From a virus (lineage: Duplodnaviria; Caudoviricetes), in IMG/VR virus record IMGVR_UViG_3300021978_000001, positions 373,491 through 437,490 of that record: a stretch of 64,000 bases of DNA. One strand, written 5' to 3'. The notes below the pieces were generated by a model that was not told the DNA's origin, searched no databases, and was given only the letters and a program-made list of their open reading frames with translations. The position numbers and the translations under genes are program-made. Shown here one piece after another: positions 30,786 to 37,044 of the stretch (position 1 is the first letter of the stretch; each line of letters opens with the position of its first letter).

Positions 30786-31427
30786 ATGAGGGACAACGAC
30801 AGCTACATCTATCGCAAAGGCACCACGCCCAACACGCGTATCGCGATCAGCCAGAAGAACAAGCTCTACTCGGTGGCGCGCGGCCAGACTGCGTTTAGCC
30901 AGGTCGGGCTCGTGTCGAGCTTCGGGTTGAGCGAATCGCGCGCTGTGGACGAGGTGCGTGGGATGGGTTACGGTGATCAGATCGCAGAACTCGTGCCCGG
31001 AGTCACCGGCGCCATGAGCATCTCGGTCAGCCGCACCTTGCTCTATCTCGCAAACATCTACCAGGCCATGGGATACGCTGCGGGCATTGACGGCCTCGTG
31101 CGAAGCCTCAAGCACCACCAGTGGCCCTTTGACCTCAAGCAAGAGCTGGTGTTCTCGCGCATCGCCACCAACTCGCAGAACAACCCCAAGCTCACGGTCC
31201 CCTCTTCGGATGGGGTCAACGAGGCACTCCTCGTGTTCTTCGAGGCTTGCTGGATGGAGTCCTACTCCGCCAACTACGCTTCGGACGCGGCGATGATCTC
31301 GGAAGACGTGGGCATCAAGGCTACCGACGTGATCGACGGTACCTCGACCTACGGCGAGCTTGCTTCCGATGCAGAGTCCACGGGTAACAACCCGTTCTCC
31401 GAGATCGGTTCGCTTCGCTACGGCTAA
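30786..31427 (+). CDS. putative tail tube protein
   Basis: VG.VSSFGLSESRAVDEVRGMGYGDQIAELVPG...SISVSRT...FEACWMESYS.NY; size and pattern of myovirus tube proteins. Confidence 0.65.
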   Translation: MRDNDSYIYRKGTTPNTRIAISQKNKLYSVARGQTAFSQVGLVSSFGLSESRAVDEVRGMGYGDQIAELVPGVTGAMSISVSRTLLYLANIYQAMGYAAGIDGLVRSLKHHQWPFDLKQELVFSRIATNSQNNPKLTVPSSDGVNEALLVFFEACWMESYSANYASDAAMISEDVGIKATDVIDGTSTYGELASDAESTGNNPFSEIGSLRYG

Positions 31428-31443
31428 TCCGTCGCTTTGACGT

Positions 31444-31487
31444 AAAAAAGCCCGCTCTCCTACAAAGAGAGCGGGCTTTTCTTTTTT
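31444..31487. terminator. bidirectional intrinsic terminator
   Basis: AAAAAAGCCCGCTCTC-CTACAAA-GAGAGCGGGCTTTTCTTTTTT between tube gene (+) and solitary CRISPR repeat (-). Confidence 0.9.
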
Positions 31488-31512
31488 CGGGGATGTTTGC
31501 GTGGTAACGAAT

Positions 31513-31541
31513 CGGACCATCCCCGCGCATGCGGGGAAACC
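31513..31541 (-). CRISPR. solitary type I-E CRISPR repeat (cassette 1)
   Basis: Minus strand GGTTTCCCCGCATGCGCGGGGATGGTCCG; CCCCGC/GCGGGG hairpin; no second repeat within one period. Confidence 0.9.
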
Positions 31542-31584
31542 TTTGATACAACCTGTCACACCTTACAACACCGAACTTCGCGTT

Positions 31585-31640
31585 CCTGTACCGAGTCAAA
31601 GGGTACCTCGACTTGACACTACCTGTCAAGTGTTATTCGA
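31585..31640 (-). promoter_or_regulatory. CRISPR cassette promoter copy 1 with 8-bp inverted repeat
   Basis: TTGACA(31629-24)-N18-TACCCT(31605-00); ACTTGACA-N5-TGTCAAGT; 49/56 identical to 32398..32453. Confidence 0.8.
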
Positions 31641-31844
31641 GGCTCTTCTCCTCACTATCATCTCTTTCCCTGAGATCAAGCGCAAGACCGAATCTGCGAC
31701 GGTGCGGCGACGGCCATCATCGAAGCAGACATGCGCGCCGTTGTCATCATCCCCGAGAAGTGTTCCCATGCCGTACTCGGGGTGAAGTACGCGATCTCCG
31801 CGAAACCACCAAGTTCTTTGTACGAGCGTCGTGTCTTTTGTCAT
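31626..31844 (-). CDS. small SH3-like protein (DUF3553-like)
   Basis: AAGGA RBS; GDRVLHPEYGMGTLLG...VCFDDG.RR; stop lies inside the -35 of promoter copy 1. Confidence 0.65.
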   Translation of the reverse strand: MTKDTTLVQRTWWFRGDRVLHPEYGMGTLLGDDDNGAHVCFDDGRRRTVADSVLRLISGKEMIVRRRASNNT

Positions 31845-31855
31845 GGCGCTTCCTT

Positions 31856-32113
31856 TTATGCTGGTCGAAAGTTCCCTACCGCCCACCGTAGCAGGCGTCC
31901 CATTGCCTGAACACTCTCATCTGAGCTTGCGAGCAACCTCGTAGCGGCTTCAGTAGCGCGCTGCTCTGCATCCCCCGAGGTGCCCTCGAAGGCATCCCTC
32001 ACAGCGCGCTTGACGCTTTCTGGGACGTCATTGGCGCGCTCCACAAGGTCGAGACCTTGCGTAGGATTTGCAGCCAACGCGTCGGCGTAAAATACCATCG
32101 TTGTTCGTGCCAT
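31856..32113 (-). CDS. 85-aa helical hypothetical protein directly downstream of array 2
   Basis: ATG 2 nt after terminal repeat; GAGGA SD lies inside the repeat. Confidence 0.7.
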   Translation of the reverse strand: MARTTMVFYADALAANPTQGLDLVERANDVPESVKRAVRDAFEGTSGDAEQRATEAATRLLASSDESVQAMGRLLRWAVGNFRPA

Positions 32114-32115
32114 TT

Positions 32116-32327
32116 TATCCTCGCCCCGCACACGCGGGGAACACTGGTCAATGTCTGAGCGCACGATCTCAGTGATCGGACCATCCCCGCGCACGCGGGG
32201 AACACGGTGAGGGCTGGAGCCGTCACGAGGTGGACATCGGACCATCCCCGCACGCGCGGGGAACACATCTGGTCCCAGGTCTCGGGTGTCCAGTTCACCG
32301 GACCATCCCCGCGCACGCGGGGAACAC
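32116..32327 (-). CRISPR. type I-E CRISPR array 2: 4 repeats, 3 spacers of 32 nt
   Basis: Repeats at 32299-32327, 32238-32266, 32177-32205 and degenerate 32116-32144; 61-bp period. Confidence 0.97.
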
Positions 32328-32453
32328 TCTTCAAATGTCCAGTTCCGTAAGTCCTCGGATTCTTTACAGAATCCTCGAACCCTCGCGAACCCGCTTCCCT
32401 GTACCGACTCGAAAGGTACCTCGACTTGACAGGTCGTGTCAAGTGTTATTCGA
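32328..32453 (-). promoter_or_regulatory. CRISPR leader plus promoter copy 2
   Basis: Leader ends TTTGAAGA before GTGTTCCCC; GGATTCT-N4-AGAATCC inverted repeat; TTGACA-N18-TACCTT; ACTTGACA-N5-TGTCAAGT. Confidence 0.85.
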
Positions 32454-32697
32454 CGACTTTTCCATCACTCGCAGGGATGAACACCCCCGGCCCGCGTTCG
32501 AGCACGGCGAAAAACCCCTGCTCGCCATTATGGACCCCCCTGTGCGCGGGATGGTTACGGAAAGCGACGCGTCGGCCTTTCGAGCCATCCACGGTCACGT
32601 CGATGCGGCATTTGGTGCCAGGTCCGATTTGGGCCATGTACGTGTCGGGGTCGATGATTTTGTGGCCGTAGGTGTTCGTGCCGTCTTCGTTCGTCAT
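32446..32697 (-). CDS. hypothetical protein
   Basis: GAGGA RBS; own class I promoter; stop abuts promoter copy 2. Confidence 0.65.
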   Translation of the reverse strand: MTNEDGTNTYGHKIIDPDTYMAQIGPGTKCRIDVTVDGSKGRRVAFRNHPAHRGVHNGEQGFFAVLERGPGVFIPASDGKVVE

Positions 32698-32735
32698 AGC
32701 ATTCCTCTCTTGATGGTGAGTTCACGTTACGCTTT

Positions 32736-32765
32736 ATCTATACCACAAGAGGGACAGGCCGTAAA
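32736..32765 (-). promoter_or_regulatory. recurrent phage promoter class I
   Basis: TTTACG-N17(...CTTGTGG)-TATAGAT. Confidence 0.75.
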
Positions 32766-32768
32766 GAA

Positions 32769-33257
32769 TCAATCTCCAGGCAAGAGGGAGTGACTCGGCA
32801 CATCCTTGACACCGAGCAAGGAAGGGAGGAAGGCGAGCGCTTCTTCGATCGTGGGGAAGATGAGGTCTGCGGCTTCACGGATGAACGCGTGATCCATGCA
32901 ATGCCCATCCGTCAGCCCCGCGATCACGACCAGCGTGTGCTCTTGACGCGAGGCCCACGCGATCTCGAAGGTGGTCCCGAGCGAGCGCGAGGTGGCGCCG
33001 GTGAGATCCGCGAGCAGGACATCGGCTTGCGCGACCATCCAGGAGTCCCGCCCGAAGATGGCGCGGTCATTGGAGATGGGGTCTTTGTAGCCCTTGGCCT
33101 TGGCTTCCCCTTGCCCGAGCAAGTGCTCCTTACCGAGCATCGGATGCAGGACATGGAAACCCATCGCCTTGAGGACGGTCCCGCGCTCGTGGAAGTGGTT
33201 GTAAGCGTCGTCGAGGTCGAGGCCCGTGATCGGTCCGGCTGCGTAAATGGTGGTCAT
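32769..33257 (-). CDS. nucleoside 2-deoxyribosyltransferase / NMP hydrolase-like protein
   Basis: IYAAGPITG, VLHP, D...V.QADVLLA, S.GT.FEIAWA. Confidence 0.8.
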   Translation of the reverse strand: MTTIYAAGPITGLDLDDAYNHFHERGTVLKAMGFHVLHPMLGKEHLLGQGEAKAKGYKDPISNDRAIFGRDSWMVAQADVLLADLTGATSRSLGTTFEIAWASRQEHTLVVIAGLTDGHCMDHAFIREAADLIFPTIEEALAFLPSLLGVKDVPSHSLLPGD

Positions 33258-33380
33258 GGTGTGCTACCTGTTGGTGACCCTGGGGAGGGTATCTCTCTTG
33301 TACCTCGAATGCTCCGGCCTGTCCAGTAAGCTGTGATATTTCCCTTGTAATGTGGGCTCTTTGACCCATGAGGAGGCGCC

Positions 33381-33755
33381 ATGGCTTCGGTTCGAGAAAT
33401 CCTGCACACGTATCTTGGGATGAACGTCTCGGGGAAACTCCGTGATGCCTTGATCGACATGTTGAGCTACAAGTCCCTCCCTTCCTGGGAGGATTGGCAA
33501 ACATGGTACCTCAATACAGTCGTGGAACACCTGGTTATCTTGTTGCCGGGTGCCACAGGGGACGGTCACGAAATCACGTTCACGCACTCTGAACACGGCT
33601 GGGTTCACCTGGCCTTTTCGTTTCGCACGGGTACCCAGACGCTTTGCGTGTCGATCCGAACCTCGAATCACCATGTGTGTTTGTATGAGGAAGACCCAAA
33701 CCTGTTGAGTCTTCTGGTCGTGCGCATTCACGAGACCCTGAGAGATCTATCATGA
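33381..33755 (+). CDS. hypothetical protein
   Basis: GAGGAGG RBS. Confidence 0.65.
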   Translation: MASVREILHTYLGMNVSGKLRDALIDMLSYKSLPSWEDWQTWYLNTVVEHLVILLPGATGDGHEITFTHSEHGWVHLAFSFRTGTQTLCVSIRTSNHHVCLYEEDPNLLSLLVVRIHETLRDLS

Positions 33756-34363
33756 CACTCGACGAACTCAAGACCACCTTGCTCGCCATGGGTGTTCAAC
33801 ACCCCGAAGTCAAGCTCCAGTTGCGCGCGGTGATGGATACGCTCTCGACAGGTGTCTTCGATCCCTCCCGTATCGCACGCACGAGGCGTGTGGCCGCGAT
33901 CCCCAAGAAGTACGAGCATCTCGACTTCACGCCACCCAAGGACGTGCAGGAGGCCGCAGGGCAGGGTCTCGAACTGCGTCAGGAGCAAGAGGGCGATAAG
34001 GCGGGGTTGACCAATGAAGAGGCGAGCGATCAGGGCATCGGGTCTGGTGTGCAGCGCGCGGTCAACCTCAAGAACGGGACCAAGCTCGAACCTGACACCA
34101 TCCGGCAGATGGATCGGTTCTTCAAGCGCTTCGCGTCTCTTATCGAGAAGGCGCGTCGTCTCACCAAGAAAGAGGAGATCCTCAAGTCCAATATGCATAT
34201 CAGTGATCTGCTCTGGGGAGGCGCGCCCGGTGAGAAGTGGGTCACCAAGATGATCCGCGAGATGGATAAGGCGGATGAGGCAGAGAAGAAAAAGGAGAGC
34301 GCCCTCGCACGTCGCGTCGCTTCTGTTTACCTTATGGCGCGAGGCGTGGCTCAGGGTCATTGA
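33752..34363 (+). CDS. phage head-associated domain protein
   Basis: FTPPKDVQEAA..GLELR...GVQRA.NL.NG....DTIRQM.RFF.R...LLWGG..G..W pattern seen in phage head/protease fusions; ends ARRVASVYL. Confidence 0.65.
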   Translation: MTLDELKTTLLAMGVQHPEVKLQLRAVMDTLSTGVFDPSRIARTRRVAAIPKKYEHLDFTPPKDVQEAAGQGLELRQEQEGDKAGLTNEEASDQGIGSGVQRAVNLKNGTKLEPDTIRQMDRFFKRFASLIEKARRLTKKEEILKSNMHISDLLWGGAPGEKWVTKMIREMDKADEAEKKKESALARRVASVYLMARGVAQGH

Positions 34364-34703
34364 GCGGTCGCACGCGCTCCAGCTTCACGTCATCCTGGTG
34401 CACGAGTACGCGCTGTCCTTCCTGGCGTTGGATCTCCCAGCACGCCCATTGCACATCCTTGTAGATGGATTCACACAGGTTCTTGACCTGGTTATAGGCT
34501 TCCTTGCCCTCCTGATACCAGAGACGGTCCATCGAATCCGAATCGAAGAGAAGATAGGTACGCCTCTCTTCGGGCTGAAACCCGTGCGCCTTGTATGCTG
34601 CGTCCGGCGTATCATGCTCGGTTAGATGAATCGTGAGCTTGGTTTGTGCCAGCCCATCCTCCTGTTGCTTTATCGTACCCATTTTCACACTGAGCCATGT
34701 CAT
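34332..34703 (-). CDS. 123-aa hypothetical protein directly downstream of array 3
   Basis: AGAAGGA SD begins immediately after terminal repeat; ATG 14 nt downstream. Confidence 0.7.
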   Translation of the reverse strand: MTWLSVKMGTIKQQEDGLAQTKLTIHLTEHDTPDAAYKAHGFQPEERRTYLLFDSDSMDRLWYQEGKEAYNQVKNLCESIYKDVQWACWEIQRQEGQRVLVHQDDVKLERVRPLNDPEPRLAP

Positions 34704-34717
34704 GGTTGTTTCCTTCT

Positions 34718-35162
34718 GGGGCTATCCCCGCGCATGCGGGGAATGTCGTTTCGCGCGTAAACAGGGCATCGAGCCATCCCCACAGATGTGGGGAACATAG
34801 GAGGCGAGCGCCAACATGAGACCAGATCCTCGGACCATCCCCGCACATGCGGGGAAAACATGTCCATATTCTCACCAATGAGTGAGGGCGAGCCATCCCC
34901 GCATGCGCGGGGAACACGGGTATACCCGGTATAGGAGGTATTCCTGGAATAGGGCCATCCCCGCATGCGCGGGGAACACAAAGAGTGGTGCGTGCGCGGT
35001 TCCAGACCCACCGGACCATCCCCGCACGCGCGGGGAACACGACAGCAGCGCCCACACGGGCATCACACGCCCCGGACCATCCCCGCGCATGCGGGGAACA
35101 CTCCGTCAATGAGGTCAGCATCCGCCCATATTGCGGACCATCCCCGCGCATGCGGGGAACAC
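34718..35162 (-). CRISPR. type I-E CRISPR array 3: 8 repeats, 7 spacers (32,32,32,33,29,32,23 nt from leader)
   Basis: Repeats at 35134, 35073, 35012, 34951, 34889, 34831, 34770, 34718 (29 nt each); degeneracy increases away from leader. Confidence 0.97.
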
Positions 35163-35278
35163 TCTTCAAATGTTCAGTTCCGTAAGTCCTCGGATTCCTT
35201 AAAGAATCCTCAGACCCTTCCGAACCCGGTTCTCTGTACCGACTCGAAAGGTACCTCAACAGGCCAAACCCTGTCAAG
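35163..35278 (-). promoter_or_regulatory. CRISPR leader plus promoter copy 3
   Basis: 86/95 nt identical to leader 2; TTGACA(35277-72)-N18-TACCTT(35253-48). Confidence 0.85.
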
Positions 35279-35355
35279 TATGTTTTTTCTCCAGTGGTAT
35301 TCTTCTTGTGGCGTGAGCTTTACAGGAATGACTGTCTCTCACGCGAGTTATCATC

Positions 35356-37044
35356 ATGCTACCAAAGATCACCCCCAACCTCGAACAGCGCCTCAAGCAC
35401 GAGGTGTGCGAGGTCGCGCGCCAGGGCTTGATGCAAGTCCCTTCCAAATCCCCCAACCGCATGCTTTCCAAGCTCGCAAAGCACCTTGTCGGCAAGGTCG
35501 ATCTCCCTGCGGGCGCGTTGAGCCAACAGGAAGCGTACCGCTTCGCCATGGAGCTGCTCGGGCAATGCCGCGTCGCCTTGACCGCACATGATGTCAAGAG
35601 CGCGGTCAAGGAAGTCACCGGGGACGAAAACCCCCTCGTGGATACCTCGACCGTCCAGCGTATCGCTGCGGCACTCCAGAAAGGATGCGAAGGCATGCGT
35701 GATGACGCGGAACGTGGTGCTCAGGGCGCCTTGCGTACCGTGACCAAGCTGCTTGTCCGCGATATGGCGCTCGAAGAATGGTCCGCCATGCAAGTCAGCG
35801 ATGCCATGGTCCGTGATATGCTGATCACGCTCCCGATGGCATCCGATCAGATCGCAGGATTCCTTTCGACCTATGTGTCCCGCGCCGCGAGCATTCGGCT
35901 CGTGCAAGCGCGTAAGGTCGCGCGCGCCTTCGCCATGAAGGCTGCTTGCGTGAGCTTGACAGAAAGGACTGCATGCGAGGGCGGGAACTGTGCTTGCTCG
36001 GGCGCCTGCGCTTGCGCATGTGAGGGCTACGCGAATCAGGATGCTTGTGCGTGTGCCTCGGTGACGTCGGGCATCACGATCGCCAATGCAGAAGACTTCC
36101 CAAAGAGCACCCAGGTCGCGATGAAGCGTCTCAAGAAGATCAATGAAGATCTCGAAATGCTCTCGACCAAGATCGAAAAGCTCGAAGATCAGGGCGTGGA
36201 TGCCTCCAAGCTGCATGGGAAGCGCAATGACCTCCAGGGAGAGTACGACCGCACGGTGCGTCTCTTGGAAGGCTTCGGCGTCAAGGTCGCAAAGAACTAT
36301 CCACCCGAAGTCGAACGCTACGTCGAGGAGCACAAGGCGCAAGGCATGCCTGTCGGTAAGGCATGGGCCATCGCCTGGTCGCGCTATTGCAAGTACAAGA
36401 ACCCAGGCAGCGAGCATTGCAAGGGGAAGGATTACTTCCCGGGGCGACGCTCCGCGCAGCTCCCGCGCCGTCAACCTCGTGAAGCGGGAAAGGACGACGC
36501 CAGGATGTTCAACATGGACCCCACGCGCTACACCCGTGAAGAGCGGCGTGAGATCTTGAGGGAGCGCCCCTGGCTGCATCCCCGCAACCCGAGCGCGCTC
36601 GACTATGCCATGGATGCCTTGCGCAAGCCTCTGGCGAACTGGCAAGAGGGCGGTTCCGGGAAAGGCGCGGTATTCGCGGCATACAATGCGTTGCATGAGG
36701 ACCAGAAGAAAGCGCTGGCCATGGCAAACGCCAAGGTGATGCCTTCGAGTACAGTGGCGTTCCGCTCCAGCATGAACGGTAAGACGTTCCCCTCGTCGAT
36801 GAAGGGGCAATCGTTGCATGTCGAGATCGAACCTGGCATGGCGCGGCTCGGACCCAACCATGTCCGCGCTTACCAGGTCACGCCACGCGAGGTGATGATT
36901 CACCCGGACATCCCCGGGTCTCCGCTCGGCAAGGGTGTGTGGAAGTGGGAGCGCGAGATGATCCTGATGCCGGACGCGAACCCCAAGCGTCTTTCCGATG
37001 CACAGACCGCAAAACTTCTCGATTCGATCGCCAGGAGAGGCTGA
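35356..37044 (+). CDS. multi-domain putative internal virion protein with C-terminal ART-like domain
   Basis: R/K-x-A motifs, Cys-rich linker, AWAIAWS module, C-terminal FR...GQSL...WEREMIL. Confidence 0.6.
   Translation: MLPKITPNLEQRLKHEVCEVARQGLMQVPSKSPNRMLSKLAKHLVGKVDLPAGALSQQEAYRFAMELLGQCRVALTAHDVKSAVKEVTGDENPLVDTSTVQRIAAALQKGCEGMRDDAERGAQGALRTVTKLLVRDMALEEWSAMQVSDAMVRDMLITLPMASDQIAGFLSTYVSRAASIRLVQARKVARAFAMKAACVSLTERTACEGGNCACSGACACACEGYANQDACACASVTSGITIANAEDFPKSTQVAMKRLKKINEDLEMLSTKIEKLEDQGVDASKLHGKRNDLQGEYDRTVRLLEGFGVKVAKNYPPEVERYVEEHKAQGMPVGKAWAIAWSRYCKYKNPGSEHCKGKDYFPGRRSAQLPRRQPREAGKDDARMFNMDPTRYTREERREILRERPWLHPRNPSALDYAMDALRKPLANWQEGGSGKGAVFAAYNALHEDQKKALAMANAKVMPSSTVAFRSSMNGKTFPSSMKGQSLHVEIEPGMARLGPNHVRAYQVTPREVMIHPDIPGSPLGKGVWKWEREMILMPDANPKRLSDAQTAKLLDSIARRG

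Follow-up and report, generated by a model that had tools for sequence, protein, structure and literature searches.

Type I-E CRISPR units scattered through a huge phage genome that encodes its own interference genes

CRISPR repeats of type I-E character occur in the virus record IMGVR_UViG_3300021978_000001 (Duplodnaviria; Caudoviricetes), of which we analyzed bases 373,491–437,490, a stretch of 64,000 nt at the end of the phage record that is hereafter called the window. Positions 31444–35278 of the window, when read on the minus strand, form three blocks that resemble transcription units, each composed of a promoter, a leader, and one or more 29-nt repeats with the consensus GTGTTCCCCGCGCATGCGGGGATGGTCCG and a period of 61 nt. 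The repeats are arranged as a single copy (31513–31541, unit 1), a set of three plus one (32116–32327, unit 2), and a set of seven plus one (34718–35162, unit 3), in which the additional copy is a degenerate terminal repeat. The source record has a length of 437,490 bp and its ends overlap by 149 nt, as in a circular assembly; CheckV reports a completeness of 100 with a terminal repeat, and the genome is larger than 200 kb. It was assembled from a hydrothermal-vent metagenome, and related strains were found in marine and seawater runs.

Promoters, leaders, and repeats of the three units

An initial annotation made from the letters of the window had described three promoter–leader–repeat units on this strand, and both the repeats and the promoter motif TTGACA-N18-TACCYT were confirmed. 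The motif occurs three times in the window (31600–31629, 32413–32442, and 35248–35277), always on the minus strand, and in none of 100 shuffles. The 437-kb genome contains only seven copies, which are all on the minus strand and correspond to six CRISPR leaders and one tRNA (transfer RNA) region. The same annotation had claimed identical promoter spacing, which is correct for the motif in all three units but not for the distance from the -10 element to the repeat, which is 85 nt in units 2 and 3 and 58 nt in unit 1. The identities that had been given for leaders 2 and 3 (86/95 positions, 90.5%) and for promoters P1 and P2 (49/56, 87.5%) were reproduced, and the view of the promoter–leader units as paralogous copies appears to be right. 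Leaders 2 and 3 belong to a class, which we term A, that is 123 nt long with its TTGACA-N18-TACCTT promoter, terminates in GAACATTTGAAGA, and is common to five arrays of the genome. A second class of leader end, class B (GTGACAAGATGTCTCAGA), lies directly against repeat 1 of the arrays inside the cas operon and of two promoter-bearing arrays, and is found in a slightly diverged form at the solitary repeat of the window. The class-A leader core had no match in other IMG/VR contigs, and Rfam had no match in window positions 31000–36000. The -35 elements of P1, P2, and one further array promoter are located within a perfect palindrome, ACTTGAC-N7/8-GTCAAGT (window 31600–31640 and 32413–32452; genome 23,356–23,375), the arms of which are kept in the related strain L072 with a variable center; this palindrome could be an operator for a dimeric regulator.

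Array 2 runs into open reading frames (ORFs) of 85 and 72 aa (B85 and A72) and array 3 into one of 123 aa (G123), and the earlier statement that no terminator lies between them was borne out, as a scan of the window found no minus-strand terminator-like site between arrays and ORFs. The sole strong terminator in the region is the bidirectional one that follows the solitary repeat. In array 3, a 23-nt stretch separates the seventh repeat from the degenerate eighth, whose hairpin is followed after 21 nt by the ATG of G123; the ribosome-binding site GAAGGAAA lies in this gap, and GAAGGAAACAACC-ATG directly follows the eighth repeat. In the terminal repeat of array 2, the handle has given way to the ribosome-binding site GAGGA, which precedes the ATG of B85 by 9 nt, and GAGGATAAA-ATG directly follows the terminal hairpin. 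Co-transcription of the arrays with the downstream ORFs is plausible, given that they are not separated by a terminator and that the ribosome-binding site adjoins the terminal hairpin. The coordinates of these features and of the cas genes described below are collected in table 1.

Table 1. Features of window positions 31444–35278 and cas genes of the phage (window coordinates unless marked "genome")
Feature	Position	Strand	Remarks
Promoter P3	35248–35277	-	TTGACA-N18-TACCTT; in a divergent intergenic region, opposite a 562-aa plus-strand gene starting at 35356
Class-A leader 3 (85 nt)	35163–35247	-	Ends with GAACATTTGAAGA against repeat 1; leader end kept in the second huge phage
Array 3	34770–35162	-	7 canonical I-E repeats, 6 spacers (29–33 nt)
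Terminal degenerate repeat of array 3	34718–34746	-	Hairpin retained, 3' handle lost
G123 (123 aa), orphan	34332–34703	-	Purifying selection; homolog P0001 87% identical; dN/dS 0.14
E124 and F203, convergent genes	33381–34363	+	E124 not present in related strains
D162, nucleoside 2-deoxyribosyltransferase-like	32769–33257	-	PF05014, E=1e-08; dN/dS 0.05
C83, orphan	32446–32697	-	Stop codon just upstream of P2
Promoter P2	32413–32442	-	-35 element within palindrome ACTTGACA-N6-TGTCAAGT
Class-A leader 2	32328–32412	-	
Array 2	32116–32327	-	3 canonical repeats, 3 spacers of 32 nt, terminal degenerate repeat (32116–32144)
B85 (85 aa), orphan small helical protein	31856–32113	-	Deleted in L083
A72 (72 aa), possibly Tudor/CarD-RID/DUF3553-like (lead only)	31626–31844	-	C-terminus apparently remodeled by the insertion of unit 1
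Promoter P1	31600–31629	-	TTGACA-N18-TACCCT; partial copy of P2 and of 10 nt upstream of P2
Leader 1 (58 nt), mosaic	31542–31599	-	Ends in class-B motif GTGACAGGTTGTATCAAA
Solitary repeat	31513–31541	-	Hairpin and ATGGTCCG handle both intact
32-nt segment between solitary repeat and terminator	31481–31512	-	Start ATTCGTTACCACGC, a remnant of the 114-aa Cys-rich ORF of related strains
Bidirectional intrinsic terminator	31446–31480		14-bp stem; shared with the convergent 213-aa gene at 30786–31427
Cas3 (873 aa)	genome 19718–22339	-	Full-length HD domain, DEAD helicase, and Cas3 C-terminal domain; HD E=6.7e-32
Cas7e	genome 18181–19671	-	E=7.5e-51; Pfam model 171 bits, cut-off 26
Cas6e	genome 17051–17776	-	E=2.7e-27
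Cas5e	genome 15832–16605	-	NCBIfam/Pfam
Cas8e–Cas11 fusion (725 aa)	genome 13651–15828	-	Cse1 match N-terminal, Cse2 match C-terminal

Cognate cas genes and the genome-wide set of arrays

The initial annotation had called the arrays "Cas-less" and had assumed that they borrow the Cascade of the host, a view that a cognate cas operon elsewhere in the phage was to overturn. The 64-kb window indeed contains no cas gene; however, the same genome encodes Cas3, Cas7e, Cas6e, Cas5e, and a Cas8e–Cas11 fusion, that is, a complete I-E interference module of the same repeat type, and the assumption of a borrowed Cascade is not supported. The assignments are based on NCBIfam and Pfam models and all exceed the curated cut-offs except for the NCBIfam "exception" model of Cas7e. 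Genome matches to Cas7e, Cas6e, and the HD domain of Cas3 were obtained only at 17–22 kb, and on the circular map the cas genes are ~42–51 kb from array 3, across the assembly junction. In an alignment with CasE from E. coli, Cas6e keeps the catalytic His motif (YaLHQ vs. YqLHQ) and the glycine-rich loop. Matches to Cas1 (PF01867) and to the I-E type of Cas2 (PF09707) are absent from the complete genome. The cas operon (genome 13,164–22,339, minus strand) is scrambled and interleaved with arrays, having the order cas3, cas7e, a 5-repeat array, cas6e, a 6-repeat array, cas5e, cas8e-cas11, and an 8-repeat array; the intra-operon arrays begin 36–60 nt past the stop codons of cas7, cas6e, and cas8/11 and have no promoter motif. 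No relative of Cas7e was found in the viral contigs searched, and a search for Cas6e homologs returned only Cas6e itself.

Fuzzy matching of the repeat consensus and a subsequent hairpin search identified ~75 repeat-derived hairpins at ~18 loci with 53 spacers, all on the minus strand. These loci form three groups, namely nine arrays at genome 13.1–31.2 kb, three of which are wedged after cas7, cas6e, and cas8/11, one array together with single or paired repeats among tRNA genes at 110–149 kb, and the three loci of the window. The set has the properties of I-E arrays: a repeat of ~29 nt with a 7-bp stem, a 4-nt loop, and the 8-nt 3' handle ATGGTCCG, spacers of ~32 nt (exactly 32 nt in 39 of the 53), and a period of ~61 nt. 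An examination of the 68 unique repeats revealed that the stems covary: the seven stem pairs are paired in 94–100% of the repeats and the four loop positions vary freely, pair 10–17 is G-C in 50 repeats, A-T in 17, and T-A in one, and other pairs show occasional double changes.

The single and paired repeats of the second group lie among 13 tRNA genes (genome 120,213–127,757 and 148,854). Two of these repeats are followed by 32–35 nt and then directly by tRNA-Met or tRNA-Val, an arrangement in which the 3' end of the tRNA-linked guide could be made by ribonuclease (RNase) P. One tRNA of the cluster has the anticodon CUA and was called tRNA-Pyl by ARAGORN.

None of the spacers matched elsewhere in the phage's own genome. 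A search of this genome with 71 spacers and trailing sequences for 14-of-16 seed matches likewise found none except for the duplicated pair formed by one spacer that is present at 28/32 identity in two paralogous arrays, and the absence of seed matches argues against self-regulatory crRNA-like RNAs (crRNA, CRISPR RNA). Only few spacers were compared with large collections, with three spacer patterns used for IMG/VR, one for the JGI metagenomes, and the spacers of arrays 2 and 3 for INPHARED. Within this scope, the INPHARED search yielded repeat matches only and no protospacer, two leader-proximal spacers with every sixth base left free had no match in IMG/VR, and the duplicated spacer had no match in IMG/VR or in the JGI metagenomes. 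Matching the repeat to host I-E loci had been proposed as a route to the identity of the host, but the scan of bacterial contigs was not discriminating, with 57 loci in many phyla (Actinomycetota, Acidobacteriota, Chloroflexota, Gemmatimonadota, and others). Because the repeat type is found in so many phyla, we draw no host link from it, and no bacterial leaders resembling those of the phage were found.

Related strains and a second huge phage

Contigs of relatives were reached via G123 and the neighboring 213-aa gene. In the closest strains, the positions of the arrays and the order of terminal hairpin, ribosome-binding site, and ORF are kept, and every spacer is different, including those at the trailer end. 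Between strains L084 and L085 the flanks have an identity of 98.4% over 3 kb; even so, the two strains have no spacer in common, and neither has one in common with this phage. Both of them preserve the arrangement of array 2 with different spacers. At the homologous terminal position before G123, L072 has a hairpin with a different stem sequence that still pairs. Comparing the spacers of this phage with the fetched loci of the relatives, and those of the relatives with this genome, gave no match in the limited stretches of relative DNA that were compared.

The ORFs beside the arrays are gained and lost among these strains. In L083, B85 is deleted except for its last ~19 codons, which directly follow the array. 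In L072 and L073, an 88-aa ORF is situated between repeats of array 3 with its own handle-less hairpin and ribosome-binding site ahead and a repeat behind. Finally, L083–L085 encode a 114-aa Cys-rich ORF (L084:3418–3762, minus strand), which has a weak 4Fe-4S dicluster-like match (E=0.0065), at the position that P1, leader 1, and the solitary repeat occupy in this phage. Because the relatives carry this ORF there, the solitary repeat is followed by a 14-nt remnant of it, and the C-terminus of A72 is remodeled, unit 1 appears to be a recent mosaic insertion that combines a partial copy of P2 and the 10 nt upstream of it with a class-B leader end. No repeats occur within 10 kb in relatives whose 213-aa protein is 77–92% identical. 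The region is a hypervariable, strain-variable accessory island. On the question of whether related phages carry the same cassette, the arrangement of array, hairpin, and ORF does recur in the closest strains and in a second phage, but the ORFs are not its fixed partners.

This second huge phage, a 366-kb JGI contig, has the conserved leader end four times and arrays of 2, 8, 1, and 2 repeats. An ORF starts 17–38 nt past the last repeat in two cases, and a full leader with a single handle-less repeat stands ahead of an ORF. The phage encodes cas6e, cas5, and cas8/11 in this order, at amino acid identities of 39, 42, and 27%, respectively, followed by the 8-repeat array; no array is present between its cas6e and cas5 (L088). 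Its arrays adjoin homologues of other parts of this genome, and the cassettes have therefore moved; the dispersed-array design is old and has been kept in this clade of phages. The 14-nt leader end is kept between phages whose Cas proteins are only 27–42% identical, which suggests a constrained leader–repeat junction, as integration by Cas1–Cas2 in trans would need. Recombination with other arrays as the source of spacers is an alternative that is equally open.

Function of the units and of the adjoining ORFs

All three loci are likely to be crRNA units belonging to the type I-E system that the phage itself encodes without adaptation genes; they would represent two mini-arrays and one single-repeat remnant or insertion. 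Each unit would be transcribed from its dedicated sigma-70-like promoter TTGACA-N18-TACCYT, and in the transcript every repeat hairpin would be cleaved at its 3' base by the phage Cas6e. This would yield 61-nt crRNAs for loading into the phage Cascade (Cas8e–Cas11 fusion, Cas7e, Cas5e, and Cas6e), which would bring the phage Cas3 to foreign DNA; the DNA attacked would likely be that of competing mobile elements or of host loci, and not that of the phage itself. As paralogous copies, the units would have spread together with the other arrays over ~18 genome sites. The last repeat would keep the hairpin only, as needed to finish the last crRNA, with the ribosome-binding site of the next gene placed directly after it, and the small downstream ORFs would merely be co-transcribed because the arrays lie in tight intergenic gaps. 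New spacers would likely stem from host Cas1–Cas2 acting in trans or from recombination with other arrays.

Several points weigh against this interpretation. No protospacer was found for any spacer scanned, and the locus is not represented in the sole, tiny metatranscriptome from the source sample or in any other RNA run. Moreover, polarized acquisition would not predict that strains 98% identical differ in all of their spacers, those at the trailer end included, and the phage has no integrase of its own. Lastly, the tight spacing between hairpin and start codon could mean more than passive co-transcription.

A possible though rather unlikely extension of the crRNA role, which adds to it and does not replace it, is that the repeats also punctuate operons. 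A cut by Cas6e at the terminal hairpin would free the downstream messenger RNA (mRNA) with a very short 5' untranslated region and leave a Cas6e-bound 3' hairpin on the upstream RNA, and the expression or stability of neighboring ORFs, cas genes, and tRNAs would be coupled to Cas6e. In the genome, 8 of the 10 terminal degenerate hairpins end 9–25 nt before a start codon with a ribosome-binding site in between, one of them preceding cas6e, and the same pattern is seen in L072, L084, L085, and the second phage (L087 and L089). The promoterless arrays close behind the stop codons of cas7, cas6e, and cas8/11, the repeats that stand a spacer length ahead of tRNA-Met or tRNA-Val, and the terminal hairpin of G123, which differs between strains and yet pairs, point in the same direction. 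However, CRISPR arrays normally close with a repeat that has degenerated at the 3' end, and the genes of phages are densely packed; the pattern could thus arise without selection. In addition, the array stays in the strain in which B85 is deleted, and gene conversion among repeats can mimic covariation. We regard as similarly tentative the generalization to a clade of 366–437-kb marine and vent phages, in which I-E repeats would act as general RNA punctuation and as mobile promoter cassettes, Cas6e (or RNase P at a tRNA) would finish the last crRNA and at the same time free the neighboring mRNA or tRNA, and spacer sets would be renewed wholesale without a phage integrase, either by host Cas1–Cas2 at the leader end or by recombination.

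Polycistronic RNAs that are punctuated by endonucleases are exemplified by the RNase III sites in the early transcript of T7 and by engineered Csy4 or tRNA–guide RNA arrays, in which hairpin or tRNA sites separate functional RNAs. In the phage studied here, the pattern is a repeat hairpin, a ribosome-binding site, and an ORF, or a repeat, an RNA of spacer length, and a tRNA, and we only infer that Cas6e processes mRNAs or tRNAs.

It is improbable that unit 1 is itself a functional small RNA, whether as an inhibitor resembling RNA anti-CRISPRs (Racrs), a crRNA-like regulator, or a single guide with a 3' end made by the terminator instead of a second repeat. This unit does have the layout of an RNA anti-CRISPR, in which a virus provides one lone repeat with a promoter and a terminator of its own; its hairpin and handle are intact, exactly 32 nt lie ahead of the terminator stem, and in the second phage (L089) a leader with a solitary repeat is also found directly upstream of an ORF. 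However, the 32 nt start with the remnant of an ORF that is intact in relatives, which makes the unit look like the product of a recent insertion or deletion, the RNA has no seed match to the phage genome, and a decoy would compete with the phage's own crRNAs. That the solitary repeat is equal to the phage's own repeat also argues against an inhibitory role of the Racr type.

Throughout the genome, ORFs located behind arrays are mutually unrelated and have no paralogs there, for which reason we rejected the concept of a duplicated guide-plus-ORF module. No Pfam or PHROG family matched G123, B85, C83, or A72. The ESM Atlas returned nothing for G123, a confident but uninformative helical model for B85, and for A72 a Tudor/CarD-RID/DUF3553-like match (score 0.91, structural TM ~0.6) that we treat as a lead only; none of these resources (Pfam, PHROGs, and ESM Atlas) links the small ORFs to Cas proteins. 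The best-supported interpretation is that the small downstream ORFs are unrelated accessory bystanders that would share transcripts with the arrays.

The initial annotation had envisaged one amplified module in which Cas-less arrays or decoy RNAs operate on the host I-E Cascade and are co-expressed with anti-CRISPR (Acr)-like or Cascade-redirecting proteins, a model that we now consider highly improbable. It could appeal to a window free of cas genes and to units with their own promoters and no terminator ahead of the ORFs. Viruses are known to exploit or inhibit host systems by means of mini-arrays and solitary repeats (PMC11656645; PMC10651486), and some dependence of a phage without cas1 and cas2 on the I-E adaptation module of its host is plausible. 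Against this model stand the cognate cas3–Cascade module of the phage and a repeat type that is spread across many phyla and provides no host link. The ORFs do not form a coherent cassette with the guides, as they are unrelated, lack paralogs as well as matches to Acr or other families, and vary in presence independently of the arrays (B85 and the 88-aa and 114-aa ORFs). Nothing that we tested supports a decoy or Acr role, and a decoy with the phage's own repeat would poison its own Cascade. The idea of an undescribed Cas-less guide-plus-protein system does not hold. Least credible of all is the notion that the arrays are decaying, nonfunctional relics, for although some repeats are degenerate, no targets were found, and an adaptation module is missing, the stems show covariation and remain paired, intact cas genes encode the catalytic motifs, the spacers turn over fully between near-identical strains, and the system is kept in a phage with Cas proteins only 27–42% identical.

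Huge phages have been described whose CRISPR systems are without Cas1, Cas2, and Cas4 and whose arrays are compact, with a median of 6 repeats (PMC7162821; PMC11656645). The phage analyzed here resembles those of Al-Shayeb et al. (2020; PMC7162821) in its genome of more than 200 kb, its effector genes with catalytic motifs, the lack of Cas1, Cas2, and Cas4, and its small arrays (1–8 repeats compared with a median of 6). It differs in that its system is of type I-E with a Cas8e–Cas11 fusion, in that ~18 loci are scattered and include arrays between cas genes, ahead of unrelated ORFs, and in a tRNA cluster, and in that the spacers are fully replaced between near-identical strains. The type I-F system of Vibrio phage ICP1 (Seed et al. 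2013, as summarized in PMC11656645) likewise equips a lytic phage with its own type I interference complex and a Cas3-type nuclease against other DNA. ICP1 encodes Cas1 and Cas2-3, its two arrays are conventional and lie at one locus, and it targets PLE, whereas here an adaptation module is absent and many arrays are dispersed. Cas-less viral mini-arrays (Medvedeva et al. 2019; PMC6858448) and solitary repeats or Racrs (Camara-Wilpert et al. 2023; PMC10651486) are similar in that a viral genome contains very short arrays or a lone repeat equipped with its own promoter, but they rely on or inhibit host Cas proteins, whereas this phage has cognate cas genes and no spacer match to the related phage DNA that we examined. 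Small arrays and degenerate repeats between cas genes are also a feature of CreA, CreR, and crlRNA (Shmakov et al. 2023; bioRxiv 10.1101/2023.03.03.530964, PMC10120712); these carry a partial match to the promoter that they repress, whereas no seed match exists here in the phage's own genome. What appears to go beyond the known class is the degree of dispersal, the placement of arrays inside the cas operon, before ORFs, and next to tRNAs, and the handle-less terminal hairpin that regularly stands 9–25 nt before a start codon.

With this genome, the presence of a complete type I-E interference module in a huge phage is well documented; the system includes a Cas8e–Cas11 fusion, lacks an integrase, and has ~18 scattered small arrays that have their own promoters or reside in operons. 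The genome makes testable both the source of spacers in a phage CRISPR system without Cas1–Cas2 and the use of Cas6 hairpins as natural processing signals for mRNAs and tRNA-linked guides, and its compact, diverged I-E Cascade may be of interest to developers of tools.

Among the genes around the units, G123, D162, and F203 are real genes, judging from their ratios of nonsynonymous to synonymous substitution rates (dN/dS; 0.07 for F203, the other two in table 1). E124 (33381–33755, plus strand) is an insertion relative to the closest strains, since X5, L072, and L073 have ~41 nt in place of ~400 nt. The 3' ends of the convergent genes G123 and F203 share 32 nt (34332–34363), with no terminator detected between the two genes. 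The 213-aa protein on the far side of the terminator (30786–31427, plus strand) is without a Pfam family and has 643 homologs at E<=1e-20, many of them on contigs of 350–456 kb; as a marker, it is conserved in a large clade of huge phages. The gene beside its homolog in a more distant relative, with 77% identity in this protein, contains an intein with a LAGLIDADG endonuclease (L079:10725–12932). Finally, unannotated clusters of I-E-like repeats, with a match of ~80% to the repeat described here, are present at ~34.2–35.5 kb in Streptomyces phages of ~37 kb such as Piccadilly, Ignacio, Vondra, Eastland, and others (INPHARED OL455886, MT451980, etc.).

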